This document shows, piece by piece, positions 11,640-59,379 of a stretch of 64,000 nucleotides of DNA; within the stretch, counting starts at the first letter, position 1, and every line of letters begins with the position of its first letter. Source of the DNA: Planctomycetota bacterium (GTDB lineage Bacteria > Planctomycetota > UBA8108 > JACQVS01); the NCBI GenBank assembly GCA_028280485.1, contig JANQLS010000042.1, forward strand, positions 6,772 to 70,771. The letters are read 5' to 3'. The translations under genes and the position numbers were made by a program. A model generated the notes under the pieces. That model saw nothing but the letters and a program-made list of their open reading frames with translations, had not been told where the DNA came from and ran no database searches.

Positions 11640-11670
11640 CCGGCTCACGGGGTGAGCCGACTACTTTGAG
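11640..11670 (-). repeat. GTAG-headed REP hairpin
   Basis: CCGGCTCACGGGGTGAGCCGACTACTTTGAG is near-identical to 24361-24392. Confidence 0.8.
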
Positions 11671-13489: not shown

Positions 13490-13493
13490 AGCA

Positions 13494-13662: not shown

Positions 13663-13678
13663 TAATGACGATAATTTT

Positions 13679-14452: not shown

Positions 14453-14507
14453 GCCGCCTCGCGGAGCGAGACGACTACCGTCACGGCACGCAGTGCGTAC
14501 CTACTAC
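14453..14507 (-). repeat. Two tandem GTAG-headed REP hairpins
   Basis: GCCGCCTCGCGGAGCGAGACGACTAC and CGGCACGCAGTGCGTACCTACTAC. Confidence 0.7.
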
Positions 14508-32689: not shown

Positions 32690-32850
32690 GGCTGTGATTT
32701 TTTATCAAGCTTCGTTAGAGCCGGATTTCAAAATAGTAGAATTACTGTCTTAACTAGCCCGAAGCGCTAGCGAGGGGCCAGCTTAAATAAGAATGGGCCC
32801 CTCGCTAACGCTTCGGGCTAGTTAAGTTGGAAGTCTTAAAAATTGTTAGC
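32690..32850. repeat. Composite repeat (flank A, 28-bp-arm palindrome with 20-nt loop, flank B), mirror copy of 39215-39372
   Basis: The reverse complement aligns with 39215-39372 across both flanks and both arms (TTAACTAGCCCGAAGCGCTAGCGAGGGG / CCCCTCGCTAACGCTTCGGGCTAGTTAA). Confidence 0.85.
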
Positions 32851-39088: not shown

Positions 39089-39113
39089 GTAGTCCCCTCA
39101 CCCCGTGAGCCGG
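39089..39113 (+). repeat. GTAG-headed REP hairpin 18 nt after the stop codon
   Basis: CTCAAA-GTAGTCCCCTCACCCCGTGAGCCGGG. Confidence 0.8.
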
Positions 39114-39214: not shown

Positions 39215-39372
39215 GTGATTTTTTTAAGACCTCCAACTTAACTAGCCCGAAGCGCTAGCGAGGGGCCAGCTTAAATAAGAATGGGCCCCTCGCTAGCGCT
39301 TCGGGCTAGTTAAGGCAGTATTTCTACTTGATTGGAAACCGACACTAACTAAGCTTGATAAAAAATCACAGC
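39215..39372. repeat. Composite repeat, mirror copy of 32690-32850
   Basis: See 32690-32850. The palindrome arms are identical and the 20-nt loop CCAGCTTAAATAAGAATGGG is in the same absolute orientation in both copies. Confidence 0.85.
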
Positions 39373-39460: not shown

Positions 39461-39485
39461 CCGGCTCATGGGGTGAGCCGACTAC
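39461..39485 (-). repeat. GTAG-headed REP hairpin after the ABC-2 permease stop
   Basis: CCGGCTCATGGGGTGAGCCGACTAC. Confidence 0.8.
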
Positions 39486-42675: not shown

Positions 42676-42803
42676 CCTGTAGGGGCAGGGCCCAGCAATG
42701 GCTGACGCCAGGATAGGGCCTGCCCGATTCTTGAAACGCCGTAAAATTTTGAATGATCACATTTGCTTGGGAGGCGGGCGCCCGCAAGGGACGCCCCTAC
42801 AGG
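42676..42803. repeat. GC-rich ~130-bp palindromic element (single copy in the window)
   Basis: Outer arms CCTGTAGGGGC / GCCCCTACAGG enclose further GC-rich inverted repeats, including the self-complementary GCGGGCGCCCGC. Confidence 0.55.
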
Positions 42804-42843
42804 ATCGGTTCAGAAATTAGATCATGGTAAGGAAACGCATTCA

Positions 42844-43551
42844 CTACTGGTTCTTGGGAAACTCGATCTGAACATCCGTCGTTCTCGTCCCCCAAATTTT
42901 GACTTTCTGTTCAACCTCTCCTAATTTCGGATGCCAGGCTTTTAAGAGGTAGGTTCCGGCTGGAACGTCCTTAATTTTGAACTTCCCGTGTTGATCCGTT
43001 ACTGCAAACAGATGGTGGTCAAAGACGGAAACATACTCCTGTTCGAAGGGATGGAGGTCACAACTCAATATCATGTGGAGTTCGCACTCTTCAAATTGAA
43101 TGTCGTATTGGTTACTACCCTTGGGAGGGACCACGATATTGAATTTCTGGTTCTTTCTAGAAGTTAATCTGATGTTGTGGATCGTATTCGAATTATTGAT
43201 GGCGACTAATGTTTGATTCTTTCTTAAATTTGTTATCCGGTGATGGGGAGGCTTAGAAGGATATTCGATTTCAATAACGGGTAATTTCGTATGTCGGGGG
43301 GGAGCAATCGAGATTTTTTTATTCTTGTTTGTCGATTCTAACCAAACGAGTGCTTTCTCAAGTTCGTTAGAAGAATTCACCAGCACAGCAGGTTGATGGA
43401 CTTTCTTCAGGGAGAGTAGAAACTTAAATGTGATCCGACCCTCTATATTCCCCGGTCGAAAATAAAATTGAATGAAGGTGTACCCCCCAATGAATACGAC
43501 CACTAAGGAAAGTAAGAGTAAGAGTTGGAAGATTCGCTTTGGTTTTTTCAC
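42844..43551 (-). CDS. Membrane-anchored cupredoxin-like plus CarboxypepD_reg-like domain protein
   Basis: N-terminal TM segment. NSNTIHNI and SCDLHPFE resemble degenerate blue-copper ligand blocks. The C-terminal GKFKIKDVPAGTYLLKAWHPKLG pattern is typical of this family. Confidence 0.45.
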   Translation of the reverse strand: MKKPKRIFQLLLLLSLVVVFIGGYTFIQFYFRPGNIEGRITFKFLLSLKKVHQPAVLVNSSNELEKALVWLESTNKNKKISIAPPRHTKLPVIEIEYPSKPPHHRITNLRKNQTLVAINNSNTIHNIRLTSRKNQKFNIVVPPKGSNQYDIQFEECELHMILSCDLHPFEQEYVSVFDHHLFAVTDQHGKFKIKDVPAGTYLLKAWHPKLGEVEQKVKIWGTRTTDVQIEFPKNQ

Positions 43552-43561
43552 CGTTACTGGT

Positions 43562-44215
43562 TTAGCTGGCTTTTATTTTACGGATATAGCTTTTAAGGAA
43601 TTTGAGGTGAGTCGTCCCTTTTCCTAATTGCCCTACAGTGATCAGTACATTTCCGATTCTGGCGATACGCTTCGACATCTCCTTACTGTCGATCGCCGGA
43701 TATCCTGCTTGTTCGGCCTCTTGATACTTATCTTTTATTTGTTCGCTCTCATATTTTTCTTTCCAAAAAGCCTCACAAGATTCTTTGTCTTTGAAGACAA
43801 AAACTCGAACGGTGACGCTCTTAAAAACATCATCAGCTTTACGATAAGTAAAATCCGCCGTTTGGGTGACTCCCATGGGTGTCATTGTTGTTTTGATGGT
43901 TTCAAGGGTCTTCTTCAGTAACTCTGTTTCCATTTCCTTGGGTACAGTAGGATTTGAAATATCATCGAGGACGAGCCCTACAGGCCCATTCCAATTGCCT
44001 TCGAATTGACTTGAGGGAATTTTGAGTTTAGAGACTTTCCCAGTGAAGCTTACGGTATTGCCATTGTTGCTGCTATCACCGGAGTTTTTTGAACAACCCA
44101 AAAAAGCGACACTCATTAAGACGGCTAAAAGAAGGCTGGTATTAATAGGACGTCTTAGGGGGTTACAAAGAAGATACATGATTGGGTTCTTTCTCATCGG
44201 AGGAAGGGATTTCAC
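43562..44215 (-). CDS. Hypothetical lipoprotein
   Basis: Lipobox FLGC after a hydrophobic leader. The start codon choice is uncertain. Confidence 0.45.
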   Translation of the reverse strand: MKSLPPMRKNPIMYLLCNPLRRPINTSLLLAVLMSVAFLGCSKNSGDSSNNGNTVSFTGKVSKLKIPSSQFEGNWNGPVGLVLDDISNPTVPKEMETELLKKTLETIKTTMTPMGVTQTADFTYRKADDVFKSVTVRVFVFKDKESCEAFWKEKYESEQIKDKYQEAEQAGYPAIDSKEMSKRIARIGNVLITVGQLGKGTTHLKFLKSYIRKIKAS

Positions 44216-44216
44216 T

Positions 44217-44804
44217 TTAGAGTTCGCTTAAAGCCTGTTGGGTGACTTTCTTGATAAACTGAGTCTTTCCCTGCGTATACTTCACACGATCCGAATTGGG
44301 AGTCAATGCTAAAGTTTGTTTGAGCTCGGCGTATTCTTGGGCTAAGTGGGGATGCTGGATCAGGTAGTCACGGAAGTGAAGCCGATCCCAGTGAGATTTG
44401 AATTCTTTTTCGACCATGTGGATATGGTGGGTTCTCGTTTGATTTTTTGGATCTCGTTTAATAAACCAAGCGTACCATGGAGGCCCATCATCGCCGTGAG
44501 TCGGTCGCCAAAAGTAATCGTAGTCGAGTGCTTCTAAAAGCGGAACGATCTCCGATTTCACCCGCTCTAAATCGGTCACTTCCACCAAAATATCGATGAC
44601 GGGTTTTGCCATGAGGCCGGGGACTGCAGTGCTTCCGAAATGTTCAATCCTCTTGTAGAGAGTCTTGGGTAATAAACTTTGGAGATGCTGTTTTTCTTGG
44701 ATAAACAATTCGGGCCAGTTCGGATCGTAATCGACGACTACTATGGGCTCCGCAATGAGTTTTTGAATTCGAGCTTTGAGTTCGGGATCAGGATTCACGT
44801 TCAA
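44217..44804 (-). CDS. GrpB-family protein (nucleotidyltransferase-like fold)
   Basis: The YDPNWPELF and IEHFGSTAVPGLMAKPVIDILV blocks are characteristic of GrpB/UPF0157. Confidence 0.75.
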   Translation of the reverse strand: MNVNPDPELKARIQKLIAEPIVVVDYDPNWPELFIQEKQHLQSLLPKTLYKRIEHFGSTAVPGLMAKPVIDILVEVTDLERVKSEIVPLLEALDYDYFWRPTHGDDGPPWYAWFIKRDPKNQTRTHHIHMVEKEFKSHWDRLHFRDYLIQHPHLAQEYAELKQTLALTPNSDRVKYTQGKTQFIKKVTQQALSEL

Positions 44805-45306
44805 TTACAGGCTCCAAATGATCTAAGCGATATACGTGTTCTTCAACTTCTTCTTGCCGGGCATTCGAAAAATTCTTTTCTTTACCGATGAATTCAAAAC
44901 CACATCGCTCTAGGACCTTCATGGAGGCCCCATTATCGTGAACGACGTGAGCGTAAATCGGCCGAGTCGGTTGTAGGGATAAAAACATTTTAAGCGCTTG
45001 AGTCGCTATTCCTTTTCCCCAGAATGGTCGATCGATCCAGTAGCCGATTTCGGTTTGTCCTTCCATTTGGAAGCTTAAGATATTCCCTGCGATCTGCTGA
45101 CCAAAAAGGATCGTTTGAATGAAGACTGTATCTGAATTCCGAATCCGTGCCCAATGCGTGTCAAAAGCATTTCTGTCTCTGGGATCTTTTGAGGTGAACG
45201 CGACCTGGTGGCGAGCGATGGGGTCTTTCTGGTGTTCAAAGAAGATTGGCAAGTCCGAATCTTCGACATCCCTCAAAGTGATTTCCGCTTTTCTATTTTC
45301 CCCCAT
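44788..45306 (-). CDS. GNAT-family N-acetyltransferase (RimJ/RimL-like)
   Basis: The WGKGIATQALK acetyl-CoA pyrophosphate-binding loop is present. The gene overlaps the GrpB gene by 17 nt. Confidence 0.75.
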   Translation of the reverse strand: MGENRKAEITLRDVEDSDLPIFFEHQKDPIARHQVAFTSKDPRDRNAFDTHWARIRNSDTVFIQTILFGQQIAGNILSFQMEGQTEIGYWIDRPFWGKGIATQALKMFLSLQPTRPIYAHVVHDNGASMKVLERCGFEFIGKEKNFSNARQEEVEEHVYRLDHLEPVIERES

Positions 45307-45319
45307 CCGTGTAACTCTC

Positions 45320-47008
45320 TTATTTCCTCTTCTTATTCCAGCTTCCGAAGGGAACTACACCACAGCGTTTCGTCCAGGCTTCGTATTCTTGGACGAGTTC
45401 TTTAACCAAATCCGGTTTGTCTTTGGCTAAATTGTGCATCTCCGTTCGATCGGCTGCCATATCGTAGAGCTCCCAGGGGCGTCGATGCTTGGCGACGAGT
45501 TTCCATTTTCCTTTACGAACGGCTCGATTTCCTTCGTGCTCCCAAAAGATGGCTTGTTGGCGTTTTAGTTTTTCACTTTTGAAAATCGAGTTTAATGAAA
45601 CGCCTTCCAAGGGAGTGATTTTGGTGCCCTCGATTTCAGTGGGGTAAGCTGCCTTGGCGATGTCGACACAAGTGGCTTGAATGTCGATTAGATGACTCGG
45701 CACGTGGGCCCAGCGATTTTTCCCTTGAATTCCTTTTGGCCAATGAGCGATGAGAGGAGTCGCGATACCTCCTTCGTGAACCCAGTGTTTGTATTCACGG
45801 AAGGGCGTGTTCGAAACATTCGCCCAATTGCGATCGTAGGCTAAGTAAGTATCTTCAGGACCGGGGAGCACATCTTTTCCCGTACGAACGACTCGGCCAT
45901 CCCGCGTTTGCATGGGGGGCCAAATCTTAGGCTGTAAAACATCGGGCCCCCAAGGTTTGTATTTAACACCAGGCTTCATTGGAGCCCAACCCAAGCTTTC
46001 AGCGCAACCGCCATTATCTTGAAGGAAGAAGATCAGAGTGTTATCAAAAACCTTTTGCTTCTTGAGTTCTTCGACGATATTTCCGATGCCCTGATCCATA
46101 CGATCGACCATGGCAGCGTAAACTTCCATCATCATCGCTTCACGTTTTTTGTTTTTTACTTTCGCCCATTTACCTACGAGGGGAGCGACGTCCCAATTCT
46201 CTTTGAGGAGACCTAATTGTTTGAGTTTCTTAACTCTCGCCTGGTGCGTGGCGACGTAACCGCCATCGTACTTTCCTTTATACTTCTTAATATCTTCGGG
46301 CAAAGCGTGCATCGGCCAGTGAGCGGCGGTGTGAGAGACGTAGAGAAAGAACGGTTTCGTTGAGTGATCCTTGTAATGATCTTTGATGTAACGAATCGCG
46401 TTATCGTTGATCGCGTCGGTATAGTAGAAAGTTTTAGGATTGTATTCTTTGTCGTTGACCGGGGTGATGTAAGTATTATCTCGACAGAGCGTGGTCGGAT
46501 CATAGAAGGATCCCGCTCCGATGATCGTTCCGTAAAAACGATCGAAGCCGCGCTGAAGGGGCCAAGTGTGCTTAGGCCCTTGAGGACCCGTATGGCGAGT
46601 GACGTGCCACTTACCACTCATATAGGTACGATAGCCAGCAGGACGTAAAACCTCGGCGATCGTTTGGGAGCTCTTGTTGAGGTTCCCTCGGTAGGATGGA
46701 AGTTTGTAATCCCCAGTCATATGGCCGACTCCCGCTTGGTGGGGGTAGAGCCCTGTCAATAAGGATGCGCGAGTGGGGCAGCAACGACCCATGTTATAAA
46801 ACTGTGAAAAGCGAAGCCCATTCTTGGCCAAGCCATCCAAGACTGGCGTTTGAATTTCTCCACCGTAGCAACCGATGTCACTGAAACCCATGTCATCCGA
46901 CATGATGAGAATAATGTTGGGGCGTTCGGAGGCCTTCCCTTGAGAAATGCTTATGAAGCCTACGAGAACGAGAAAGCTCATTACGGTACATGCGCGTTGA
47001 ATGGACAT
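45320..47008 (-). CDS. Secreted arylsulfatase (formylglycine-dependent)
   Basis: Signal peptide, NIILIMSDDMGFSD, and the CCPTRASLLTGLYPHQAG signature. Confidence 0.85.
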   Translation of the reverse strand: MSIQRACTVMSFLVLVGFISISQGKASERPNIILIMSDDMGFSDIGCYGGEIQTPVLDGLAKNGLRFSQFYNMGRCCPTRASLLTGLYPHQAGVGHMTGDYKLPSYRGNLNKSSQTIAEVLRPAGYRTYMSGKWHVTRHTGPQGPKHTWPLQRGFDRFYGTIIGAGSFYDPTTLCRDNTYITPVNDKEYNPKTFYYTDAINDNAIRYIKDHYKDHSTKPFFLYVSHTAAHWPMHALPEDIKKYKGKYDGGYVATHQARVKKLKQLGLLKENWDVAPLVGKWAKVKNKKREAMMMEVYAAMVDRMDQGIGNIVEELKKQKVFDNTLIFFLQDNGGCAESLGWAPMKPGVKYKPWGPDVLQPKIWPPMQTRDGRVVRTGKDVLPGPEDTYLAYDRNWANVSNTPFREYKHWVHEGGIATPLIAHWPKGIQGKNRWAHVPSHLIDIQATCVDIAKAAYPTEIEGTKITPLEGVSLNSIFKSEKLKRQQAIFWEHEGNRAVRKGKWKLVAKHRRPWELYDMAADRTEMHNLAKDKPDLVKELVQEYEAWTKRCGVVPFGSWNKKRK

Positions 47009-47035
47009 AGTCTTTCTTCTTCTTTGGATGACAGT

Positions 47036-48745
47036 TTATTTTTTCTTCTTATTCGCTTCGCGAAGACGTCGAATTTCGCTGGGGGTTTCCACGTGACAAC
47101 GTTGAGCCCAATCGAGATAGGCTTTCGCCATCTTTTCGACTAAGTCTTTCTTTTCGGAGGCTAAATTTTGCGTTTCACTTCGATCCTTCTCAATATTGTA
47201 GAGCTCCCAGGGATTTTTTTCACCCCGAGCGACTAATTTCCACTTCCCATCCCGCACGGCTCGATTTCCGTGGTGCTCCCAAAAGAGTGGTTTCTTGCGA
47301 GAGAGAGCTTGTTTTTTAAACGTTGGGACAAGACTCAGCCCTTCTAAGGCTTGGATCTTATTTTCCTGGTAAGTTTTAGGATAAGTCGAGTTCGAGGCTT
47401 CAAGAAACGTCGGCATCAAATCGATGATATGGCTGATATCGTGTCTCCATTCGTTCTTTGCTTGGATTCCCTTCGGCCAATGAACGATGAGTGGGGTGGA
47501 GATGCCGCCTTCATGGGTGTCGTGTTTGAAGTAACGAAAAGGAGTGTTGCTGGCATTCGCCCAACCTCCGCCGTAAGAAGTAAAAGACTTCCTTTTGCCC
47601 TCGTCTTTGATGTCAGCGGTCCTCCCATTGGTAAAGCCGTAGAGGCTGTACTCGGCACAGCCTCCGTTATCAGCTAAGAAGACGATCATCGTATTTTCAA
47701 GCTTATTCTGTTTTTCCAAGGCTTGAATGATTTTACCGATGCCTTGATCCATCGAATCGATCATAGCCGCGTAGATCGCCATTCGGTGAGCCATGAATCT
47801 TTTGATGTTCTTCTGAGTCACTCCTTTGATCTTGGTGACGTGACCGGGGAGTTCTTGCTCGGCTAATTTCTCCCAATCTGGTACCCAGTGGGGGCGTTTC
47901 GACATCTTCCAAGCATCAGTTGCTAAACCCATTTTTTGGAGTCGTTCAAAGCGTTCTTTTCTTAAGACATCCCACCCATTGTCGTAGCGACCTTTGTATT
48001 TTTCGATGTCTTTATCTTTGGCGTGAAGCGGCCAGTGTGGAGCGGTGTAGGAGACATAGAGGAAAAAAGGATTGGAAGCTACTTTCTTATCTTCAGCGTG
48101 CTCGGAGATAAATTTAGCGGCTTCAATACTGATCGCATCGGTGTAATAGTAACTGGGATTTTTTTTCGCTTCTTCCGTGATATCTTCGTTATCTCGCGTC
48201 AAGGTATTAGGGGTGAAGAACGATCCTGCTCCGGCGATCGTTCCGTAATAACGGTCGAAGCCTCGTTGGAGAGGCCAGTTGAATTTGTCTTTGAGTTGGT
48301 TGGCGCGACGAACATTCGTGAGGTGCCATTTTCCCGACATGTACGTCGAGTAACCGTTCACTTTCAAGGCTTCAGCCATGGTGACACACTGACGATTGAT
48401 ATTTCCGCGATAACCAGGAATACCCCAATCAGGTTCCATTCCGCCCATGCCGGCTTGATGGGCGTAGAGTCCCGTTAAGAGGGAGGCTCTGGTGGGACAG
48501 CAGCGTGCGCCATTATAAAACTGTGAATAGCGAAGCCCGTTTTTTGCTAAGCGATCTAGGTTCGGAGTTTCGATTTCTCCTCCGTAACAACCAATGTCGG
48601 AATAGCCCATGTCATCCGCCATGATGAGGATGATGTTGGGGCGTTCGTTTTGAGGTGAGGCTGTTGAAGTACTCACTCCCAAACTGAAAGCGAAAAGGAG
48701 AAGAGTGCAGAGATGAAATCCTAGTTTTTTCAAGGAAGAGATCAT
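47036..48745 (-). CDS. Secreted arylsulfatase, tandem paralogue of 45320-47008
   Basis: Signal peptide, NIILIMADDMGYSD and CCPTRASLLTGLYAHQAG. Collinear with its neighbour over the full length. Confidence 0.85.
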   Translation of the reverse strand: MISSLKKLGFHLCTLLLFAFSLGVSTSTASPQNERPNIILIMADDMGYSDIGCYGGEIETPNLDRLAKNGLRYSQFYNGARCCPTRASLLTGLYAHQAGMGGMEPDWGIPGYRGNINRQCVTMAEALKVNGYSTYMSGKWHLTNVRRANQLKDKFNWPLQRGFDRYYGTIAGAGSFFTPNTLTRDNEDITEEAKKNPSYYYTDAISIEAAKFISEHAEDKKVASNPFFLYVSYTAPHWPLHAKDKDIEKYKGRYDNGWDVLRKERFERLQKMGLATDAWKMSKRPHWVPDWEKLAEQELPGHVTKIKGVTQKNIKRFMAHRMAIYAAMIDSMDQGIGKIIQALEKQNKLENTMIVFLADNGGCAEYSLYGFTNGRTADIKDEGKRKSFTSYGGGWANASNTPFRYFKHDTHEGGISTPLIVHWPKGIQAKNEWRHDISHIIDLMPTFLEASNSTYPKTYQENKIQALEGLSLVPTFKKQALSRKKPLFWEHHGNRAVRDGKWKLVARGEKNPWELYNIEKDRSETQNLASEKKDLVEKMAKAYLDWAQRCHVETPSEIRRLREANKKKK

Positions 48746-48936
48746 GGATCAACTATTGAAGGGGCTAAATGAACGGGAACATAAAAATCAGTTTTGAACT
48801 GACGCAGATAAAAATCGTATCAAGGAGGGATAGGGGAGTTCTACCGATTAATTGTTAAACAGTTCGCTGTAGCCAAATTTTCAAGAATTTGAATGATTTC
48901 TGACCTTAAAAAGTTGAGTCCCAATTGAAGAAAGTC

Positions 48937-50022
48937 TGCAAGAAAATAGGGGCAAGAATATATATGCCAGTCAATATTCTTATCTTCTTGCCCCCCAGTT
49001 TCTTGCCTAAATTAGTATTTAGGAAGGGCTTTGAAAATCAGAGTATATTTAGACAAACATTTTCACTTCTTTCTTCGTTAAAAAAATCGAAAAAGTGAGG
49101 GGATTACTTGGCTGCTGAGGTATCTCAGGAAGATTCGGGCGAAAAGAAACTGAGCATGAAATTACTATGTTATGCCAATTTGTACGAGAATCGAAAATGG
49201 ACTCCATCTATGAGATTAAGGTTGCTTTATAGCTTTGCTCTCTACTGCCGCTTAATTTTTTTTCAAGGCAAATTGAACTTAAGAATATAGGCAAGAAAAT
49301 AGGGGCAAGAAAATGATTGCCAGTCGAACCTCTTATGTTCTTGCCCCCATTTTCTTGCCTAAATTAGTATTCAGGAAGGGTTTTGAAAATCAGAATGTGT
49401 ATAGACCATCATTTTCACTACATTCTTCTATATAAAAATAGAGGCCGTGGGGACGTTGCTTCCATGCTGAAACTTCTGGGTAAGATTCGAGTTAATAGAG
49501 ACTGGGCATGAACTTACTCTATTTAAGTCAATTTGAATGAGGATTGAAGATGGACTTGATCAATGAGGTTGGGGCAACTTTATAGCTTTTCACATTGTTG
49601 CCATTTAATTTTATTTCAAAGCAAACTGAACTTAAGAATCTGGGCAAGAAGATAGGGGCAAGAAAATGATTGCCAGTCGAACCTCTTATGTTCTTGCCCC
49701 CCATTTTCTTGCCTAAATTAGTATTCAGGAAGGGATTTGAAAATCAGAGTATATTTAGACATCCATTTTCACTTTTTTCTTCTTTTAAAAAATTGAGGAA
49801 GTGAGAACGTTGCTTGCATGCCGAAGCATTTCGAAAAGCTTCGAGCGAAAAGAAACTGAGCATGGAATTACTATATTTAAACCAATTTGAATGAGAATCG
49901 ATAATTGACCTCAAAGATGAGATTAAGACAGTTTTATAGTTTTGCTCAGTTCTGCAGTTTGATTTTTTTTCAAGGCAAACTGAACTTAAGAATATAGGCA
50001 AGAAGATAGGGGCAAGAAAATG
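48937..50022 (+). repeat. Tandem array, ~3.3 copies of a ~353-bp non-coding unit with a 22-bp-stem GGCAAGAAAAT hairpin
   Basis: Hairpin starts at 48937, 49290, 49642 and 49997 (the last is a half copy). The units are homologous over their whole length, and indels break all reading frames. Confidence 0.9.
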
Positions 50023-50142
50023 TTCGTGATATCTGTTTATTAACTTATTACGAATATTCTTGATTGCTTTAATAGCCTCAAATCAGCGTAGATGGGGGCC
50101 AGTATAAACAAGTCGAGGTTCTCTATATTCTGCTATTAAAGA

Positions 50143-53100
50143 TTAATTACAAACATCCGGGCAATTCGGAATTCTTCGACAGAACACACCTTGCTCGGGG
50201 GCAGCCCCATCTAAATAGAGGAATGTTAATTGATAGACGACATCGGAGATGTCGACCGTTTGATCGCCGTTGAGGTTCAAGAGTGCTAAGTTTCCACCTT
50301 CAGCTAAATTCCCATCGGAACAGGGAAGGCTTGTATCTCGCCCCAAGACTTTTAGTAAGAGAGTAATCGAATCACCAAGGTCGATAAAGCCATCTTGATT
50401 GGCATCGCCCGGTTTTTGAAATCCTCCTTCAGTGGTGCCATCCGATTCGCTTATACCGGGAGAGCCGTGCAGATGGAGACTCGACTTCCAACTGTCGGGA
50501 TCACTTCGGTCTGAGCACTCCGTTAGGAGATCGATAAGAACGAGAGAAGATCCCTCTCCATCCGTGGTGGGATCCCACTCATCGTCATAGGTGAAGTTAC
50601 AGATGGTAACGCCTCTTCGATTCTTAAGAATGAGCTCTTCGCCGCCATTGCTTAGGCTACCTTGGTATTCCCCCGCGACGTACAGGTCAGGATCGGGGTA
50701 GCGATCTTGAAAGGCTTCTAAATCTTTCACCACAAGAACGACTTCACCAGGGTTTAAATCCATATCCGGATCATCATCCTGTTTTGGAAATTCAAAGGAG
50801 ATGCCTCCTTCAATCTTCATCTGCGAGAGATTGAGAGGATGGTCACCGGTATTTTCCAGTTCCAAAAATTCAAAGTCACCCTTAGTAAAAGCGCTACCCG
50901 CAGCGGGAGCTAAGGGGTGATACATGATTTCAGTGATTTGGAGGTCACCGGAATTGACGGTGTATGTCACTTCATTGAGAGCACTCCAATCACCACCCGA
51001 TCGAGCCCGTGCTTTTAATGGGGTGGATCGAGTGATGAAGAATCCGTCTCCTTCTTCTCCCGCTAAGAGAGCGGTGAGGCGGGGTTCCATGAGGAAATCA
51101 GAACTGCCGGAAGAAGTGTTTAATCCATGAATGGCTAAGACGTTTTTTCCTGTTCGTAACAAGGTTCTGGGATTCGGATGCGTGAAGGTGGCTAGCACAA
51201 GATTGACAGCCTGGCCATCGGAATGACTATTTCTGGCGCTCGAACTCCAGCTCAAGGCATCGGGTTCGTTCTCGGCTGCGATTTCTTCCCCATTGAGGTA
51301 GGCGACGTATCCATCGTCGAAGCGGAATCGCAATTGAAGTTCAACGACGCTTCCTGGGTCGTCGAGATCGAATTCGTATCGGAGATAAACCGAAGGATGC
51401 ACATTATTCATCTCAGATTCGATGTCGAGATCGATGTGATCATCGTAGGTGGTTTGTTCATCGTAACCCACTCCGCTTCCCGCCGGGGATCTTAGCCACC
51501 CATTGGGAGTGAAGTTGACTTCAATCCAATCTAAGCCGAGTTGGCCATCGTTTGGAACATGAACAAAGACTTCGTTCGTTGACCCGATGAGTGTTTGCTG
51601 GTTGCTTAGAGAATCTAAAGCGATGGCGGTGTCGGAGATCCCTCCACCGACTAAACGAGGATCTGAACCATCGAAGGTGTAGTAGATCGTTCCCTCGGCC
51701 GTTGTCATATGGATTTGTGAGTTATGGACGAGTTCGCTACCCGTTTGATTGAATTGGGGAGCTTCGAGAGAGGGATAGAATCCGGCTGCTTTGTACTGAT
51801 TGAGAACGGTCTCCGATCGGGAGGCTAGGACTCCATTCACGTAAGAATCTCGCGCGGAAGCCCAAGAGGCGGGAGTGCGATATCCCCAACGTGCGGCTTC
51901 GGCGATGAAGGCTCGTTCGACTTGATCACAGCGAAGGAGTAGCCTTGCTCGCATCGATTCTGTTGTTAATGCACCGCCATTAAAGAAGTGTCGGTGGATG
52001 CGATCACCCAATAGCGTGAGATACTCCGAATGGCCCTGGGCAAAAAGCATGCTGAAGATACTTCCGGGGCCGTCTCCGGCTTGTCGGCCGGGAGCGCCTC
52101 TTCCCGTTCGGTTTCCTGCACTACGAGTAAAGCCATCGGCATCGTTTAAATAAAACTTAAATCCACTTCCGGGTGCTACGGGACCTGCACAACGGTACTC
52201 GTCTTCTGAATTTCCGAACATCCACATCAACATGTAGTCAACGTAGTGGGCGACATCCAAATAGGGAGACACCGCTACATAATTAGCTCGTAGGTTTTTA
52301 ATATTTTGCCAAGCGGAACCATCGCCATCGTAAACCGACCCGGGATCGGCCCAGCCCCCTACATTCCAGTTTCCGTTGATGGCTTCGTAGTCATCTTTTT
52401 TACCTCCGAGGTACTCGGCTTGCATGGAAGCGTTCCAGCGCTCTCTCAGATGGTACTGGCCCCAGTATGTTCCGTTGATGTAAAGGTGGACGAACCTTCC
52501 ATGGGGATTCAAGTTCCCCATGTCGAGCATGGTGTCGTCGGTCAATCGATTCGACATATAAAATCCGCGAGCCACCATGTCGTGGGAACCTCCGCGGAGT
52601 TCGAGTTGATCGAAGGTGTCTACCGCTGGCACTCCATTTTCATGCCCATCAAAGAGAGGGAATTTGAATTTTCGAGCTCCGTGAATACCGCGGAAATAGA
52701 GCCTGAAATTTTTCTTAGCGAAGTTGGTGAACGCGCCTCCGAAGTAGCGGATTCCCGCTCCGTCTTGGTGGTCGGCGCCTGTATTCGGATCGATCCACTC
52801 AATGGAGCCCGTAACTTCAGTGGTGTTTCTAACGGCGGTTTCAGTCACTAAAGAGATCGTGGGTAAATCGGAAAGACCATCAAGGATTTGCGGACTGTAT
52901 TGAGGGTTTTGGGTGATGGCCGTATCCATCACTGGGGAGTCGATGACATCATCTAGAAAGATATAGGTTTGTGTATCGATGTTGGTAGGAATGTATCCAT
53001 CCAGGTAAGCCCTCGCCCGCACGACCGTCGTTTCAGAGATTTGAATCGGACCGTCATAGGTAAATCCGCTAGTTAAAGTAGGCTCTGTTTCATCGAGCGT

Positions 53101-54483
53101 ATAACGGATAACACTTCCATCGGTCAAAGACGAAATAGTGAGATCGAAGGCCTCTGTGTAAAAGCCTCGATCGGGCATAAAGCTGGTGTCTTTAACGAAA
53201 CCTAAGCTTCGAATCCCGTTTTCGGAGCCGGGCGTCGAAGGCTGTAAGTAACCGATATCTCCATTCGCATCACGGCCGTAAGAGACACTATCTTTTTGTT
53301 GAGGATAAACAAGTTCTTGGGGGTGATCGACGGGATACTGATCGATGATCGTGGTTCCGTCGACGTCGATCAGTCCCAAGTACTCGCCTGATTTTTCGAG
53401 TTGGAAGTGGGTGTGAAGTTCGCCCGCTGGATCGCTGAGATCTTTTCCAGATGCGAAGATGACGAGAAAGCCCTCTGCAGGAATAGAAACATTGGGGATG
53501 ACCCACTGGCCTGTAAGGTCTGAATTGTCGGTGAGCCGATAGCCATCAATATTGAGGCTGAAAGGGTTGGGATTGTAGAGTTCGATCCAATCGTTGCGAT
53601 CTCCCTCGGCATCGTGAAGGGATCCTCCGGCAGCTTCAAATTCGCTGATTTGAGGATGAAAGGTAGGGGCATCTACTCCGACGGTAACGGTAGCTTCATT
53701 CGTTCCCGATTCATTGGTGGCCGTCAGAGTGTAAGTAGTTTGAACTTCTGGGCTGACGACGATCGAACCTTCGTCCTCATCGATAGAACCGATGCCCGGA
53801 GTGATTGTGATGGTGTCGAAGTTTCGAACTTTCCAACTGAGGGTCGCTTCAGTAGGTAGATTGGGATCACCGGATTTCGTGATGTTTCCCGTATCGGTTG
53901 TAAATCGATCGATGACGGGATGCGGAGCAGCGTAGGCTTCGAGTTCAGCCAATTGAGGATTGTAGGCCGCGTTGCTTCGATTGATGACTCGAATGAAGCG
54001 ACCTTTAAATGTTCCGTCAGGATCTAAGTTCGCTCGAAGAGTATCGCGACCACCATCGCCCGAATTAGAACCATCGGTTCGAATGTCTGCCGACCAGTTG
54101 ACGGCACCGGTCTGTCCGTTGTTATCTTCAAAAATGGAGACTCGGTAATTAGAAAGACGATCCGGGCAACAACCTGTTCTATTGATGAGAATAACTCGAT
54201 CGAGGGAGTACTCTTGACCTAAATCGACTTCGTAATAAAAGCCAATCGTTCCTGAAGAAGCCAGGGGATGGGATTGGTTGTTCAAGATCCCGTCGGTGAG
54301 ATGTTCAGGGATTTGCCCTCCCCAAGTCGCAGCTGATGCGAAGACTTCTTTGCCGAGAGCGAGGTTCACATCTTCTTGAGCCCAGCTAGGAGAATTAAGA
54401 CCCCATCCCAAGCAGAGGCTGGCAATTAAGATAAGAGAAGATGGACTAATTTTACGTAAGTGCGGCAATTGAATAAATCCCAA
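50143..54483 (-). CDS. Secreted 1446-aa CotH-kinase-family protein with discoidin-like, lamin-tail (x2), chitobiase-C-like and dockerin-like domains
   Basis: The CotH-like core has FRLYFRG..KFKFPLF..LRGGSHD..VHLYINGTYWGQYHLRERW..FYLNDADGF. The LTD blocks are ISEFEAAG..NDWIELYNPN..IDGYRLTD and ITEIMYHP..FEFLELENTG. The C-terminal EF-hand pairs are GDANQDGFIDLGD and LNGDQTVDISD. The TTG start is uncertain. Confidence 0.75.
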   Translation of the reverse strand: MGFIQLPHLRKISPSSLILIASLCLGWGLNSPSWAQEDVNLALGKEVFASAATWGGQIPEHLTDGILNNQSHPLASSGTIGFYYEVDLGQEYSLDRVILINRTGCCPDRLSNYRVSIFEDNNGQTGAVNWSADIRTDGSNSGDGGRDTLRANLDPDGTFKGRFIRVINRSNAAYNPQLAELEAYAAPHPVIDRFTTDTGNITKSGDPNLPTEATLSWKVRNFDTITITPGIGSIDEDEGSIVVSPEVQTTYTLTATNESGTNEATVTVGVDAPTFHPQISEFEAAGGSLHDAEGDRNDWIELYNPNPFSLNIDGYRLTDNSDLTGQWVIPNVSIPAEGFLVIFASGKDLSDPAGELHTHFQLEKSGEYLGLIDVDGTTIIDQYPVDHPQELVYPQQKDSVSYGRDANGDIGYLQPSTPGSENGIRSLGFVKDTSFMPDRGFYTEAFDLTISSLTDGSVIRYTLDETEPTLTSGFTYDGPIQISETTVVRARAYLDGYIPTNIDTQTYIFLDDVIDSPVMDTAITQNPQYSPQILDGLSDLPTISLVTETAVRNTTEVTGSIEWIDPNTGADHQDGAGIRYFGGAFTNFAKKNFRLYFRGIHGARKFKFPLFDGHENGVPAVDTFDQLELRGGSHDMVARGFYMSNRLTDDTMLDMGNLNPHGRFVHLYINGTYWGQYHLRERWNASMQAEYLGGKKDDYEAINGNWNVGGWADPGSVYDGDGSAWQNIKNLRANYVAVSPYLDVAHYVDYMLMWMFGNSEDEYRCAGPVAPGSGFKFYLNDADGFTRSAGNRTGRGAPGRQAGDGPGSIFSMLFAQGHSEYLTLLGDRIHRHFFNGGALTTESMRARLLLRCDQVERAFIAEAARWGYRTPASWASARDSYVNGVLASRSETVLNQYKAAGFYPSLEAPQFNQTGSELVHNSQIHMTTAEGTIYYTFDGSDPRLVGGGISDTAIALDSLSNQQTLIGSTNEVFVHVPNDGQLGLDWIEVNFTPNGWLRSPAGSGVGYDEQTTYDDHIDLDIESEMNNVHPSVYLRYEFDLDDPGSVVELQLRFRFDDGYVAYLNGEEIAAENEPDALSWSSSARNSHSDGQAVNLVLATFTHPNPRTLLRTGKNVLAIHGLNTSSGSSDFLMEPRLTALLAGEEGDGFFITRSTPLKARARSGGDWSALNEVTYTVNSGDLQITEIMYHPLAPAAGSAFTKGDFEFLELENTGDHPLNLSQMKIEGGISFEFPKQDDDPDMDLNPGEVVLVVKDLEAFQDRYPDPDLYVAGEYQGSLSNGGEELILKNRRGVTICNFTYDDEWDPTTDGEGSSLVLIDLLTECSDRSDPDSWKSSLHLHGSPGISESDGTTEGGFQKPGDANQDGFIDLGDSITLLLKVLGRDTSLPCSDGNLAEGGNLALLNLNGDQTVDISDVVYQLTFLYLDGAAPEQGVFCRRIPNCPDVCN

Positions 54484-55030: not shown

Positions 55031-55495
55031 TTGAGTTTTAAAATTAAAAGTAACGAGGAGAACAGATTCGAGATCATCCTCGAGGGCGAACCATTTTTCA
55101 TTCAAAGTTTGCCGATGGCTCCTCAAGCCATTGAAGAAGATTTGTTGTCAGGTGCATGGCTGATTCTTATCTTTGCGGTTTGGAGTAAATACGATATAGA
55201 AGCGATTGAGATCGCCATCCGAGGTGTTAAAAAATACAAAGGTAAGTTGAATCTCGGTATTCGTCCTTTTCATGACGTTGAGGAAATGACGGGGTGGCTC
55301 CCGCTCACTCTCAATAAAGAAAGTGACCTAAATGAGAAAGTTACATTTACAGAGGGGGAGGATTTGCCGTTTCCGAAATATGCGGGAAGAACTCCTTATT
55401 GGTTGACAATGGAAGGGAGGAAGTTGAAGAGTCTTTTGCCGGGAGTGTTGTCGGAAGAAGATCTTGAGAACCATTTGAGTCGTTCATTTAAGTAA
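55031..55495 (+). CDS. Hypothetical protein
   Basis: 154-aa ORF. The TTG start is preceded by GGAGG at a 5-nt spacing. Confidence 0.45.
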   Translation: MSFKIKSNEENRFEIILEGEPFFIQSLPMAPQAIEEDLLSGAWLILIFAVWSKYDIEAIEIAIRGVKKYKGKLNLGIRPFHDVEEMTGWLPLTLNKESDLNEKVTFTEGEDLPFPKYAGRTPYWLTMEGRKLKSLLPGVLSEEDLENHLSRSFK

Positions 55496-55526: not shown

Positions 55527-55800
55527 CTTAAATTTATTTCAGAGTAAAAATTAGCATAAGAATATAGGCAAAAAAATAGGGGCAAGAAAATGTTTGCTTG
55601 TCGAGCTTCTTCTTATCTTCTTGCCCCCCATTTTCTTGTCTGAAATAATGTCGAGGACACATTTTGAAGATTCAGAAATGTATGGGCGTCCATTTGTGCA
55701 TCTTTCCTGGTTAAAACTATAGTGGGCGTGTTGCTCGAATTCCTAAGCTATTCGGGGAGAATAGTTAGGCTTTAATGTTCATGAACGGCAATAAAGAGGT
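55527..55800 (+). repeat. Dispersed copy of the 353-bp unit family (tail block, hairpin, ~160 bp of downstream homology)
   Basis: CTTAAATTTATTTCAGAG...AAGAATATAGGCAAAAAAATAGGGGCAAGAAAATG...TTCTTGCCCCCCATTTTCTTGTC...TTTTGAAGATTCAGAAATG. Confidence 0.8.
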
Positions 55801-55811
55801 TTATTAGAAGA

Positions 55812-56087
55812 ATGGGTAGAGTTCGGTGTTCTGAGCATGGTCTTTCTGAGCTTATATTTGTTTGCGAGCATATTCGAAATGCGATTCCAGCGGATGATTC
55901 ATCCATTTGTGTCGAAGTGATCGAAGGGGTAGGTGATGAGTTAGATTTGTGGCATTATTTCTGTCAATCTTGTGCCGATGAATTTGGATATAAAGATGGT
56001 TTACGGGTAGATCGGCTACCCGATGAATACATGCATTCAAATAAGGGAGCCTGTCGGGAATGTTTCAATTCTTGGAGAAACAAATGA
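55812..56087 (+). CDS. Hypothetical Cys-rich small protein (possible zinc ribbon)
   Basis: 91-aa ORF with CSEH..VCEH and CQSC..CREC pairs. Confidence 0.4.
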   Translation: MGRVRCSEHGLSELIFVCEHIRNAIPADDSSICVEVIEGVGDELDLWHYFCQSCADEFGYKDGLRVDRLPDEYMHSNKGACRECFNSWRNK

Positions 56088-56197
56088 AACGGCTCTTCCT
56101 GGTGCAATTTGAAAACCTCAAAGATGCGCTCCCTTCTCTCAGAAGGTTAAGTCTCTAATTCTCAATTAGAAGGATCCTCAAGCTTTAATTGATGTGT
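56084..56197 (+). pseudogene. Truncated, stop-interrupted 5' remnant of an LRR-protein gene paralogous to 56752-57372
   Basis: ATGA overlap with the preceding ORF. AACCTCAAAGATGCGCTC.CTTCTC matches nt 56767-56792 apart from one position, and homology continues to ...TTAATTGATG. In-frame TAA codons lie at 56156 and further on, and homology ends where the repeat unit begins. Confidence 0.6.
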
Positions 56198-56750
56198 AAA
56201 CTCCTGTGCTGGGGTTTAAATTTATTTCAGAGCAAAATGAGCATAAGAATATAGGCAAGAAAATAGGGGCAAGAAAATGTTTGCTTGTCGAGCGTCTTCT
56301 TATCTTCTTGCCCCCATTTTCTTGCTTGAGATTATTTCGAGGAAAGATTTTGAAGATTAAGGATATTACATATGCATACATTTTCGATTGTTTTTCGTTT
56401 TATAAATAGATGAAGAGAGAGAGTTGTTCGAATTCCGAAATTTCTCGGGAAGGTTGGAGCTAAAGAAGACTGAGCATGGGATTGCCATACTTAAGCCAAT
56501 TTAAATGGGGCTTTGAAATTGAATAGCTGGAGGATGTGGATTGCCGATTTATAGCGTTACTCAGTTCAGTCGTTTAAATTTATTTCACAGCAAACTGAAC
56601 TCAAGAAATTGCGCAAGAAAATAGGGGCAAGAAAATGTTTGCTTGTCGAGCTTCTTCTTATCTTCTTGCCCCCATTTTCTTGTCTGAAATAATGGGGCGG
56701 GAAGAATTTGAAGATTCAGGATATTATTAGACAAACATTTTCTACTTTTC
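56198..56750 (+). repeat. One full and one partial copy of the 353-bp unit family (hairpins at 56254-56325 and 56611-56684)
   Basis: Same hairpin, the same TTTGAAGATT.AGGATATTA block, and the same ACTGAGCATGGGATTGCCATACTTAAGCCAATTTAAATG block as the 48.9-50.0 kb array. It ends at the ATG of the LRR gene. Confidence 0.85.
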
Positions 56751-56751
56751 C

Positions 56752-57372
56752 ATGAAACAATTTAACAACCTCAAAGATGCGCTCTCTTCTCCCCTAAAGG
56801 TAAGGTCCTTAAATCTCTATCAAGAAGATCTTCATGCATTAATTGATGCTTTACCTCAGTTTGAACGATTAAGAGAGCTAACACTCAATGGGATTGATCT
56901 TCCGTCTTTACCTTCGGAGATTCTGGAGCTTAAGAATTTAAAGAAACTCTACATACTCAATTCTCCACTTGAAGAGCTTCCCTCTGATTTTAAAAACTTG
57001 AGTTCATTGGAAGCTCTCGCCGTCCGACAAGGTGATTTAAGAGAAATTCCTGATTTGATTGGTCAGCTGAAGAATTTGAGGAAGTTGAATTTATGGAGTA
57101 ATAAGATTAAGCGAATCCCTGCTTGTCTTTCTTCTTTGCCAAAGCTAAAGGAGTTAGTTTTGGGACTCAATCAACTCCCATATCTCCCGGCGGATAGGGG
57201 ATGGGAGCAACTTGAATTTCTTGATATTCGGCTTAATGAACTCCGACAAATTCCAGATGCATTTATGGTCATTCCTCATTTGAGAGGACTTTATTTAAAT
57301 GGGAATCAAATTTCTGAGGCTCAGCAAAAAGAAATCGAAATGAGTTATCGAAAATCTTACGTTGTTCTTTGA
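56752..57372 (+). CDS. Leucine-rich repeat protein
   Basis: About 7 consecutive LxxLxxLxLxxNxLxxLP repeats (for example LKNLKKLYILNSPLEELPSDF and LKNLRKLNLWSNKIKRIPACL). Confidence 0.7.
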   Translation: MKQFNNLKDALSSPLKVRSLNLYQEDLHALIDALPQFERLRELTLNGIDLPSLPSEILELKNLKKLYILNSPLEELPSDFKNLSSLEALAVRQGDLREIPDLIGQLKNLRKLNLWSNKIKRIPACLSSLPKLKELVLGLNQLPYLPADRGWEQLEFLDIRLNELRQIPDAFMVIPHLRGLYLNGNQISEAQQKEIEMSYRKSYVVL

Positions 57373-58038: not shown

Positions 58039-58212
58039 GGGGAGGATTGAGATCGATTGAGAGGATTGAAACGATTTCTAAAGTTAATAGTTAAAGTATC
58101 AGGCGGTTGAATGCAATTCTATGGGAAACCGTTAGTTGGATGTTATCAATTTTGCATATTGAAGGGTAAGTGCTGAATTAAATGAAGGATAGTCGGGAGT
58201 TAGGATTTAGTG

Positions 58213-58310
58213 TCGCCCTTACAGGGCTCGGTCGTATCTCATTATTCAACCCAGGGCGACGCTTCGCTCTGTCCTGGGCTATGAAGTGGCGGGCTTTCAG
58301 CCCTTGGCGG
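58213..58310 (+). repeat. Roughly 100-nt three-hairpin repeat element, copy 2
   Basis: Aligns with 59041-59138 and with the reverse complement of 2925-3022. Confidence 0.8.
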
Positions 58311-58370
58311 ATTGGAATAGCAGGTATCGATTTGAATATTTGAGCGATGGATCGCAGTATGATGTAAGAA

Positions 58371-58431
58371 CCCTCGTTAACACTTCGGGCTTGAAATGAG
58401 GCTTATTTCAAGCCCGAAGTGTTAACGAGGG
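58371..58431. repeat. AGCCCGAAGCG family palindrome, tail-to-tail arrangement with a short loop
   Basis: CCCTCGTTAACACTTCGGGCTTGAAAT-GAGGC-TTATTTCAAGCCCGAAGTGTTAACGAGGG. Confidence 0.8.
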
Positions 58432-58562
58432 TCGGCAGCCAGGTACATAAATAAATACGATTGAGTTTAGAAGAGAGATTTTGCGATAAATAGGCTTTCA
58501 CAGAGAATGGTATTTTTAAATGAGTTTTAGAATTAGAACGAATAAAAGCAGTAATTATTGAA

Positions 58563-59030
58563 ATGGATAGGAAGCCGATATTAAAAACCAACGGTGGTAG
58601 GAAATTTGAAGCTGTTGATTCTGAGGGGATTTATCTTTTAGAAGGGGAAACCTCTAAAACTATTTGGAATGCTCGGGTGGATGGGCATCCGAAGGTAAAG
58701 CATCGTATGGCGATTCCGGAAGAACATTGGCTGAGCGCCTCTCCCTCAGAAACCCTTTTCGGATGCATTCGCGATGATTTAGAGGAGTTCGGTCCCGCAT
58801 ATGTTAGGTCTGTTTTCGATGATCATGTTCCGTGGTCTCCGGATCTGATATTGGGGTATTTCATTGCAAGAAATAGCATCATTGAAGTTCCTTGGAAAAA
58901 GTTTCAACAAACCTGGGATGAATTTCTATGGTACGAAGATGAGTTCCCAATTTTGATGCCATTAAAGGAACCTACTGATATTGCATTGATGTTCGGACCC
59001 CACGACCAAGTGTGGAAGATTCAGAGGTAG
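58563..59030 (+). CDS. Hypothetical protein
   Basis: 155-aa ORF with no obvious RBS, flanked on both sides by direct copies of the three-hairpin element. Confidence 0.4.
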   Translation: MDRKPILKTNGGRKFEAVDSEGIYLLEGETSKTIWNARVDGHPKVKHRMAIPEEHWLSASPSETLFGCIRDDLEEFGPAYVRSVFDDHVPWSPDLILGYFIARNSIIEVPWKKFQQTWDEFLWYEDEFPILMPLKEPTDIALMFGPHDQVWKIQR

Positions 59031-59040
59031 GGTTTTATTG

Positions 59041-59138
59041 CCGCCCTTACAGGGCTCATTCGCATCTCATATTTAAACCCAGGGCGACGCTTCGCTCTGC
59101 CCTGGGCTAGGTTATGGCGGGCTTTCAGCCCTTGGTGG
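59041..59138 (+). repeat. Roughly 100-nt three-hairpin repeat element, copy 3
   Basis: Aligns with 58213-58310. Confidence 0.8.
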
Positions 59139-59170
59139 TGGGGAATTTTAAAATGGATTCGTAATTTTTT

Positions 59171-59198
59171 CCCCTCGCTAGCGCTTCGGGCTAGTTAA
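59171..59198. repeat. Single arm of the AGCCCGAAGCG/CGAGGG family
   Basis: CCCCTCGCTAGCGCTTCGGGCTAGTTAA. Confidence 0.75.
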
Positions 59199-59292
59199 TG
59201 TTTCGATCTTCAAACGGGCTGGATAAGAAGAGGGAATTTAGAAGAATGAAACCCGAAGCATCAATAATGTTTGGATACGAGCTCGTATTAAC

Positions 59293-59350
59293 TCTCGCTA
59301 GCGCTTCGGGCTTGAAATTTTGTTAACTAGCCCGAAGCGCTAGCGAGGGG
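59293..59350. repeat. AGCCCGAAGCG family palindrome, tail-to-tail with a short loop
   Basis: CTCTCGCTAGCGCTTCGGGCTTGAAATTTTGTTAACTAGCCCGAAGCGCTAGCGAGGGG. Confidence 0.8.
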
Positions 59351-59379
59351 TGGGAAGAGTGATGATTTAAATAGGTTGA

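Follow-up and report, generated by a model that had tools for sequence, protein, structure and literature searches.

A hairpin-headed tandem array between two planctomycete genes is probably a locally amplified dispersed repeat

Structure of the array

The 64,000-nucleotide stretch of Planctomycetota bacterium contig JANQLS010000042.1 analyzed here (the window) contains a tandem array of hairpin-bearing units in the intergenic gap at 48746–50142. The gap separates the start of a sulfatase gene (47036–48745, minus strand; Pfam Sulfatase, E = 4e-66) from the stop codon of a CotH-like gene (50143–54483, minus strand), whose 1446-aa product has CotH, lamin-tail-domain, and F5/8-type-C regions. Tandem Repeats Finder reports a single array at 48938–50022 with a period of 354, 3.1 copies, 79% matches, and a score of 1389. 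The initial annotation of this DNA had described three units and a partial fourth. That layout stands with two corrections: the third hairpin starts at 49643 rather than 49642, and the array does not end at 50022, as a decayed fourth unit is alignable past this point to ~50140, beside the CotH-like stop codon. Hairpins thus start (GGCAAG) at 48937, 49290, 49643, and 49997, with spacings of 353, 353, and 354. Units 1–3 lie on the plus strand at 48937–49289, 49290–49642, and 49643–49996; unit 1 is made up of a hairpin, a 45-nt head, a body, and a 40-nt tail.

Each unit begins with a hairpin of ~70 nt in which every arm contains, as had been proposed, two copies of the 11-nt word GGCAAGAAAAT. A 22-bp stem with one A:C mismatch had been assigned to all units. 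This describes exactly the hairpin of unit 2 (H2, 49290–49359), which contains four words; the hairpins of units 1 and 3 (H1, 48937–49007; H3, 49643–49713) have an additional, bulged C, and H1 has more mismatches. H1 is a degenerate edge copy that begins TGCAAG and has the right arm CAGTTTCTTGCC. At the other edge, H4 (49997–50022, plus strand) is a left arm alone with its two words. The decayed rest of the fourth unit (50023–50142, plus strand) abuts the CotH-like stop codon and is weakly recognizable (local alignment score of 17, plus inspection by eye) from a right arm AATATTCTTGATTGC and the head segments CAAATCAGCGTA and GTATAAACAAG..CTATTAAA. The array is bounded by a hairpin at both ends, and its edge copies are degenerate. 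RNA folds of the window hairpins have energies of -31 to -38 kcal/mol (z = -5.5 to -8.8), and the inner stem GGGGCAAGAA/UUCUUGCCCC has AUUUUCUU after it on either strand. Matches to GGCAAGAAAAT with at most one mismatch number 31 in the window against 2.6 expected, a count reached in 0 of 100 shuffles; three of the 31 lie outside hairpins, which is chance level.

The hairpin and the 45 nt that follow it had been singled out as the best-conserved parts of the unit, and comparison of the array units bears this out: hairpins are 85–97% identical (97% between H2 and H3) and heads 87–96%, compared with 71–76% for the remaining body. The same annotation's conserved islands within the body do not stand out statistically. 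Half of 286 body columns are invariant, and their clustering is not above that of random placement (p ~0.26). The view that the array is non-coding was upheld; no open reading frame (ORF) is shared across units, and the longest ORF in the array (85 aa) had zero homologues in a protein search. A Logan contig of the array locus (L044; compared sequences carry labels from L004 to L337) is 100% identical to window positions 42777–49309 and ends ~20 nt into H2.

Beside the array, the sulfatase genes at 45320–47008 and 47036–48745 are adjacent paralogues with stretches of 76–84% identical DNA, a tandem duplication.

Further copies in the window

Copies outside the gap had been missed in the initial annotation. 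The array hairpin was found four more times in the window, at 8615–8684, 55567–55640, 56254–56326, and 56612–56684. The hairpin at 56254 belongs to a dispersed full copy (56214–56611, plus strand) that consists of a tail, the hairpin, and a complete body; it forms a 358-bp unit, the body of which is 65–70% identical to those of the array. When four full units are compared, hairpins are 81–97% identical, heads 65–96%, and remaining bodies 65–76%. Two partial copies flank this unit on the plus strand. One (55527–55811), with the 40-nt tail, the hairpin at 55567–55640, and a diverged head, begins its hairpin 72 nt past the stop codon of the ORF at 55031–55495 and lies upstream of a 91-aa Cys-rich ORF. 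The other (56612–56751) comprises the hairpin at 56612–56684 and 67 nt of head and ends at the ATG (56752) of a leucine-rich repeat (LRR) gene. Between 55.5 and 56.8 kb, modules of 40-nt tail, hairpin, and 67–170 nt of head separate small plus-strand ORFs that encode 154 aa (55031–55495), the 91-aa Cys-rich product (55812–56087), and a 206-aa LRR protein (56752–57372). The hairpin at 8615–8684 is a solo copy of the GGG-linker subtype found in Pirellula genomes; it is without the unit head and tail and sits between two minus-strand genes. No transposase, integrase, or Cas genes were found in the window, where the neighbors are ordinary chromosomal genes.

A 5′ fragment of the LRR gene (approximately its first 100 bp) is duplicated at 56084–56195 relative to 56752–56850 (56105–56151 and 56758–56804). 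The ATG of the fragment overlaps the stop codon of the Cys-rich ORF, and the fragment ends just before a hairpin unit. The duplication suggests recombination between hairpin units that took gene fragments along.

The hairpin family in other genomes

The 21-nt double-word arm occurs at 43 loci in GTDB species-representative genomes, nearly all of them Pirellula or other Pirellulaceae, together with one Opitutales and one Verrucomicrobia metagenome-assembled genome (MAG). Many more matches to the arm were found in JGI metagenomes, and zero in viral contigs, plasmids, and phage collections. In BLASTN comparison of the window with all family loci, the ~75-nt hairpin alone aligns, with 77–84% identity. 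Copies of the ~280-nt body are confined to the window among the collections searched: a body 18-mer gave 91 matches in representative genomes, all chance occurrences in unrelated phyla, and a lineage-specific tail-plus-arm pattern had zero matches in JGI metagenomes. A literature search for GGCAAGAAAAT returned primers in unrelated papers only.

Arms of the family are runs of GGCAAGAAAAT at a 14-nt period, usually of two words but ranging from one to five; one arm of L018 contains five words, and the two arms of L238 contain two and five, respectively. Inverted doublets enclose a variable loop of 6–143 nt, and solo arms (which are common) and tandem clusters also occur. A variant word, GGCATGAAAAT, was seen, and related hairpins GGCAGAAAAAT and GGCAGAATAAT lie nearby. 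In Pirellula sp. Prado161, hairpin arrays have a 160-bp period and an unrelated inter-hairpin segment, with clusters of three (L021), four (L043), and two (L036) copies. Examination of 47 hairpins revealed no flanking target-site duplication and no GTAG or CGTC tag at either end. The word varies at positions 5 and 9. When the left arm is compared there with the reverse-complemented right arm, matching bases are no more frequent than chance would give (at position 9, 22 agreements versus 22.2 expected for the outer word pair and 10 versus 16.9 for the inner pair), which indicates that the word sequence, and not base pairing, is conserved.

The hairpins are found almost exclusively beside the 3′ ends of genes. 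Family sites fall in 18 convergent, 28 tandem, and 4 divergent contexts (binomial p = 0.002 against 25% divergent), and hairpins lie a median of 110 nt from the closest stop codon that faces them; these figures are approximate because the contexts come from crude ORF calls, with 22 arm matches within long predicted ORFs and 24 at contig edges. An earlier pass over the genome loci, tallied by eye, gave ~15 convergent, 22 tandem, and 1 divergent. In L198, hairpins follow two of three paralogous secreted-protein genes, 28 nt and ~20 nt past the stop codon. The arms in that locus, 1.66 kb apart, had been considered as the ends of an element with a possible transposase between them; this was rejected, as they belong to the two separate hairpins.

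Solo double-word arms in Pirellulaceae bacterium SH467 (CP197412.1; L014, L029, and L034) occupy a fixed position in a repeated segment beside a long, repeat-rich gene of Rhs/YD-like type. They were considered as insertion sequence (IS) ends and rejected, as they lie in a repetitive Rhs/YD-type gene region at three places in one complete genome. L004 and L041 represent an orthologous site in two MAGs that differs by a 31-nt segment: one has the left arm, the loop, and one right word, and the other has the left arm joined straight to the flank. This difference may illustrate how a hairpin decays or is excised.

A RayT-like gene beside some hairpins

All-against-all comparison of arm-flanking ORFs yielded a protein of ~394 aa (L037:2278–3459), full or partial copies of which are present in 12 hairpin loci, within 60–350 nt of hairpins. 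It contains NHLH and YVDLNPIRA motifs and matches NCBIfam NF047646 (REP-associated tyrosine transposase, RAYT, where REP denotes a repetitive extragenic palindromic sequence) with E = 2.5e-8 and 2e-9, below the curated cut-off. Thousands of homologues exist, many of which JGI names "REP element-mobilizing transposase RayT". The protein gave no Pfam match at E ≤ 0.01 (Y1_Tnp included) and zero PDB sequence matches with either a single sequence or a profile. Its AlphaFold model is mediocre (predicted local distance difference test score, pLDDT, of 62.5), and every Foldseek match has E > 0.7; transposases of IS200, IS608, and ISDra2 account for much of the top 50, in which no match is significant.

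In Pirellula sp., the gene is part of a 1.5-kb multi-copy module with copies 86–88% identical, in the order leader, gene, GGCAGAAAAAT-type hairpin ~55 nt past the stop codon, and window-type hairpin ~100 nt further. Hairpins lie on one side of the RayT-like gene, 3′ in L037, L035, L036, and L040 and upstream in L197 and L161. Three more RayT-like loci, fetched singly, have their own short repeats instead of the window hairpin.

The module is located at L037 2219–3740 and recurs in L024, L035, L016, L020, L022, L040, and L161 (Pirellula sp. MAGs). Its copies show graded 5′ truncations and always keep the 3′ hairpins, and GTGCCACCCACTTGC is repeated upstream of the RayT-like gene and again between the module hairpins. 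Elsewhere, a RayT-like gene in L336 is preceded by GGGATGCCGGTACC (2820–2990, ~5 copies with a period of ~14 nt), and GTGCCATCCAT stands upstream of the gene in L337 (2800–2960), with inverted copies downstream at 4500–4560. These loci hint that gene-lineage-specific word repeats are a general feature of the RayT-like protein family.

Interpretation of the array

We judge it probable, if only by a modest degree, that the array is a dispersed intergenic palindromic repeat of Pirellulaceae-type planctomycetes, similar to REPINs (REP doublets that form hairpins) or miniature inverted-repeat transposable elements (MITEs), that has been amplified locally as R-(S-R)n. The location of the hairpins, their occurrence as doublets as well as singlets and clusters, the missing duplications, and the RayT-like neighbor in some genomes fit the behavior of a REP doublet or small MITE. 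Among the roles proposed initially, a satellite derived from a MITE fits best, given a palindromic repeat dispersed through multiple genomes and the R-(S-R)n layout. A DDE-type MITE was rejected: the arms are inverted, but the 47 hairpins lack duplications and no transposase lies between arms.

In the mechanism that we propose, a trans-acting, sequence-specific DNA enzyme would copy or maintain the hairpin; the sole candidate seen is the RayT-like HUH tyrosine transposase beside hairpins in some Pirellula genomes. In the lineage of the window, the hairpin would travel with ~40 nt of tail and 45–280 nt of head and body. Two neighboring hairpins could then act as the direct repeats between which unequal recombination or replication slippage takes place, so that hairpin and intervening DNA would be amplified to H-(B-H)n, the 353-bp array. 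Homogenization would maintain the inner copies, with decay at the edges and drift in the body. As a by-product, the three to four very stable hairpins, each with a AUUUUCUU run after the inner stem, would probably halt or dampen transcription that runs on from the CotH-like gene into the sulfatase operon. The stable stem, the AUUUUCUU run found after it on either strand, and a location past stop codons are the sequence features from which we infer that the hairpin possibly acts as a terminator or attenuator.

Several observations weigh against this interpretation. No pair of empty and filled sites, no target duplication, and no autonomous element bounded by the arms was found, and the arms, without a GTAG or CGTC tag and not self-palindromic, are unlike true REPs. 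The genome's own canonical GTAG REPs are the more obvious RAYT substrate. The window has no RayT-like gene or other transposase or integrase. Among 80 RayT-like loci of other species, none has the window hairpin within 1.5 kb and no downstream hairpin is held in common, so the RayT link is restricted to a few genomes; the adjacency could mean no more than that many genes are followed by the hairpin. Some of the 22 arm matches within long predicted ORFs come from ORFs that are spurious or from hits that the relaxed pattern makes by chance. The nearest relatives of the CotH-like protein (at most 61% amino-acid identity, the best in a Planctomycetia MAG) do not help, as the four closest examined, with 59–68% GC, are without the word and therefore offer no orthologous empty site to compare; the source organism is without a close representative.

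Conservation of the word in both orientations would also suit a double-strand DNA-binding protein. The 11-mers would in that case be sites for an operator, insulator, nucleoid, or segregation protein, and the array a high-avidity cluster of at least 14 sites. The word is indeed conserved in all four positions and in both orientations without compensatory pairing, arms differ in their word count (L018, L238), conservation across genera extends to the word and not to its flanks, and single words are not above chance. However, none of the sites is linked to a candidate binding protein, divergent promoter regions are avoided, unlike the case of a classical operator, and the 14-nt period puts successive words on different faces of the helix. 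A centromere or terminus system would have fewer and less scattered sites than five loci in 64 kb, and the sites are not on plasmids. We consider a pure binding array unlikely. Its plasmid form, an iteron array or partition centromere as the initial annotation had suggested, was rejected: the context is one of chromosomal housekeeping genes, and the hairpin lies at many chromosomal intergenic sites in many genomes with no match in the plasmid and phage collections.

Improbable to the same extent is that the hairpin is a bidirectional intrinsic terminator and nothing else, in which case the array would be a terminator stack selected to insulate the sulfatase operon and no mobility would be involved. 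The GGGGCAAGAA/UUCUUGCCCC inner stem with AUUUUCUU after it on either strand, the very stable folds, the median of 110 nt after stop codons, and the dominance of convergent and tandem contexts all agree with such a function. They do not explain why terminators of unrelated genes should be ~80% identical over 70 nt across genera, which is not normally the case. Solo arms, which are unable to fold, are common; loops of up to 143 nt and unequal word numbers make poor terminators, and the stems are without compensatory evolution. A related proposal, that the 11-nt word is the recognition site of a novel planctomycete protein in a protein-dependent terminator, insulator, or chromosome-structuring system, with the sites arranged as paired, inverted runs of words at Pirellulaceae gene ends, strikes us as distinctly unlikely. 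If it were true, the 353-bp array would rank as a site of unusual strength, and cross-genus conservation would be due to the protein rather than to mobility.

Tandem small RNA genes were among the initial proposals, and we now regard them as very unlikely. On the minus strand, every unit would supply a promoter, a ~290-nt transcript, and a terminator in the form of the hairpin. The minus strand of all four full units contains a TTAAAY-N18-TATAAA motif, with a variable spacer in the alignments, and the hairpin is followed on that strand by a U-rich stretch. In a minus-strand RNAalifold model, the tail pairs with the CCAATTTGAATG island in a 13-bp helix, where five changes are one-sided and compatible with G-U pairing. 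The helix and the motif are weak leads for a minus-strand RNA. The mismatch in the stem linker, which is G:U on the minus strand, had also been taken to indicate that strand as the source of RNA. That argument fell away, as the G:U state is a single substitution (linker AGG for GGG) that all unit copies of the lineage inherited and the strand of greater hairpin stability has no consistent tie to neighboring gene direction across the family. RNAalifold covariation terms for the four units, the only related sequences, are approximately zero (-0.94 kcal/mol for the plus strand and +0.75 for the minus strand). Rfam searches of the array at gathering and permissive thresholds gave microRNA and snoRNA hairpin noise only, below gathering scores, in agreement with the initial remark that no described RNA family was recognized. 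The scan for sigma-70 promoters and terminators gave counts at or under the shuffle level, with fewer sigma-70 sites than in shuffles; the main hairpin was missed by the terminator scan because its loop is longer than the scan's model. The partial copies at 55.6 and 56.7 kb are without the putative promoter, the invariant body columns are unclustered, and the body is absent from all collections searched, whereas the hairpin is widespread. The array is most likely something other than a set of RNA genes.

Chromosomal integrons are known in planctomycetes, and the co-oriented imperfect palindromes that separate small ORFs at 55.5–57 kb, one of which has a gene fragment duplicated beside it, recall attC-type hairpins that separate small cassettes, as does a similar gene-hairpin-gene series in L198. 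An integrase-less cassette array is nevertheless hardly credible, given that RYYYAAC/GTTRRRY core sites are absent at hairpin ends, the two "boxes" are direct rather than inverted repeats of each other, no tyrosine recombinase is in the window, and the array "cassettes" are mutually homologous and non-coding. A CRISPR array, discounted from the outset, was rejected on the mutual homology of the inter-hairpin segments and the absence of cas genes from the window.

If the locally amplified repeat is the correct explanation, the gap would represent the local expansion of a family-wide planctomycete repeat and no locus of new RNA genes. The family would be of interest in that its arms are made up of 11-nt words, variable in number, rather than of a small palindrome. 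Its sequence is maintained from genus to genus with no compensatory stem changes, and it lies at gene ends and is sometimes found beside RayT-like genes. It would thereby offer a contrast to the classical GTAG REPs that coexist in the same genome and a candidate substrate for the large, uncharacterized RayT-like family of Planctomycetota. Such arrays break short-read assemblies, as illustrated by the Logan contig that ends in H2, and can yield spurious ORF calls.

Comparison with known repeat systems

REPINs and bacterial interspersed mosaic elements (BIMEs) with their RAYTs resemble the window family in being extragenic and near gene 3′ ends, and in replicating as an inverted doublet that folds to a long hairpin (PMC3116915, PMC3733652). 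In both, singlets, doublets, and clusters coexist, clusters take in flanking DNA, target duplications are lacking, and a RayT-like gene stands beside the repeats, here in some genomes (PMC3116915, PMC3733652). In contrast to REPINs and BIMEs, the window family has no GTAG or CGTC tag, its arm repeats an 11-nt word in direct orientation rather than forming a small palindrome, its stems show no compensatory change, and its sequence is the same across genera. Moreover, the window genome has separate canonical GTAG REPs, and the RAYT link is limited to few genomes. TIRtrons, TIR repeats that flank TIRYT genes, are similar in that non-palindromic arms occur as inverted repeats, dimers, or clusters and in that the linked RAYT-like proteins differ in length from classical RAYTs (PMC3733652). 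R. baltica is rich in tyrosine transposase genes with flanking repeats (PMC3733652). Unlike TIRtrons, the window family has arms on one side of the RayT-like gene only, and its word-repeat architecture is not described for them (PMC3733652). The initial exclusion of REP and BIME elements is hence right in the strict sense and too narrow in another, as the family behaves like REP doublets and BIME clusters. Since strict REP/RAYT membership fails on the tag, the arm structure, and compensatory evolution, we class the family as a variant that behaves like that system and not as a member.

Small MITEs can double as terminators, as exemplified by the Correia element of Neisseria and by ERIC. Similar to these elements, the window family has terminal inverted repeats of ~25 nt around a short variable core, is intergenic, has many copies, and probably affects transcription. 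Unlike them, it lacks a target-site duplication, its termini consist of tandem words in variable number, and no autonomous IS that matches it was found. A further point of comparison is provided by palindrome-associated elements (PATEs), which are derived from IS200/IS605 (for the TnpA-Y1 family, see PMC6006769). PATEs share hairpin ends, the lack of duplication, and a nearby HUH Y1 enzyme with the window family, and the 1.5-kb multi-copy gene-plus-hairpin module of Pirellula sp., with copies truncated from the 5′ side, is also PATE-like. No left-end hairpin or cleavage tetranucleotide was identified in the window family, in contrast to PATEs, and the RayT-like protein differs in its length of 394 aa, its long C-terminal extension, and its failure to match Pfam Y1_Tnp at E ≤ 0.01.

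Other repeat families in the window

The canonical GTAG REP (GTAGTC GGCTCAC CCC GTGAGCC G) has 12 copies in the window versus 0.45 expected and is a second, classical REP family of the same genome. Copies lie at 2740–2790, 3103–3126, 4702–4725, 11641–11664, 14484–14507, 20208–20231, 22580–22603, 24239–24262, 24363–24386, 39089–39112, and 39462–39485. As read from these copies, stem halves vary yet remain complementary (GGCACAC/GTGTGCC, CCGTACGC/GCGTGCGG), in contrast to the uncompensated arms of the array-type hairpin. At 4640–4817, an 88-bp unit is present twice in tandem (83% identical), and each copy ends in a GTAG-type REP; this is a small cluster of REP plus flanking DNA that parallels the 353-bp array.

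Intergenic repeats of a third family, CCCCTCGCTAGCGCTTCGGGCTAGTTAA, are frequently arranged as inverted pairs. Related repeats are located at 2861–2893, 13492–13533, 13635–13667, 14231–14272, 22892–22924, 32749–32829, 39237–39317, 58364–58445, 59170–59202, and 59285–59363, and a 78-nt inverted pair of this family occurs twice with 99% identity (32749–32826 and 39237–39314). Rfam Acido-Lenti-1 RNA was detected above its gathering score at 59078–59132 (plus strand) and 2931–2985 (minus strand). Finally, two copies of a 139-nt direct repeat, 79% identical, stand on either side of the DUF2947 gene region (58180–58318 and 59008–59146), and the second copy overlaps an Acido-Lenti-1 match.

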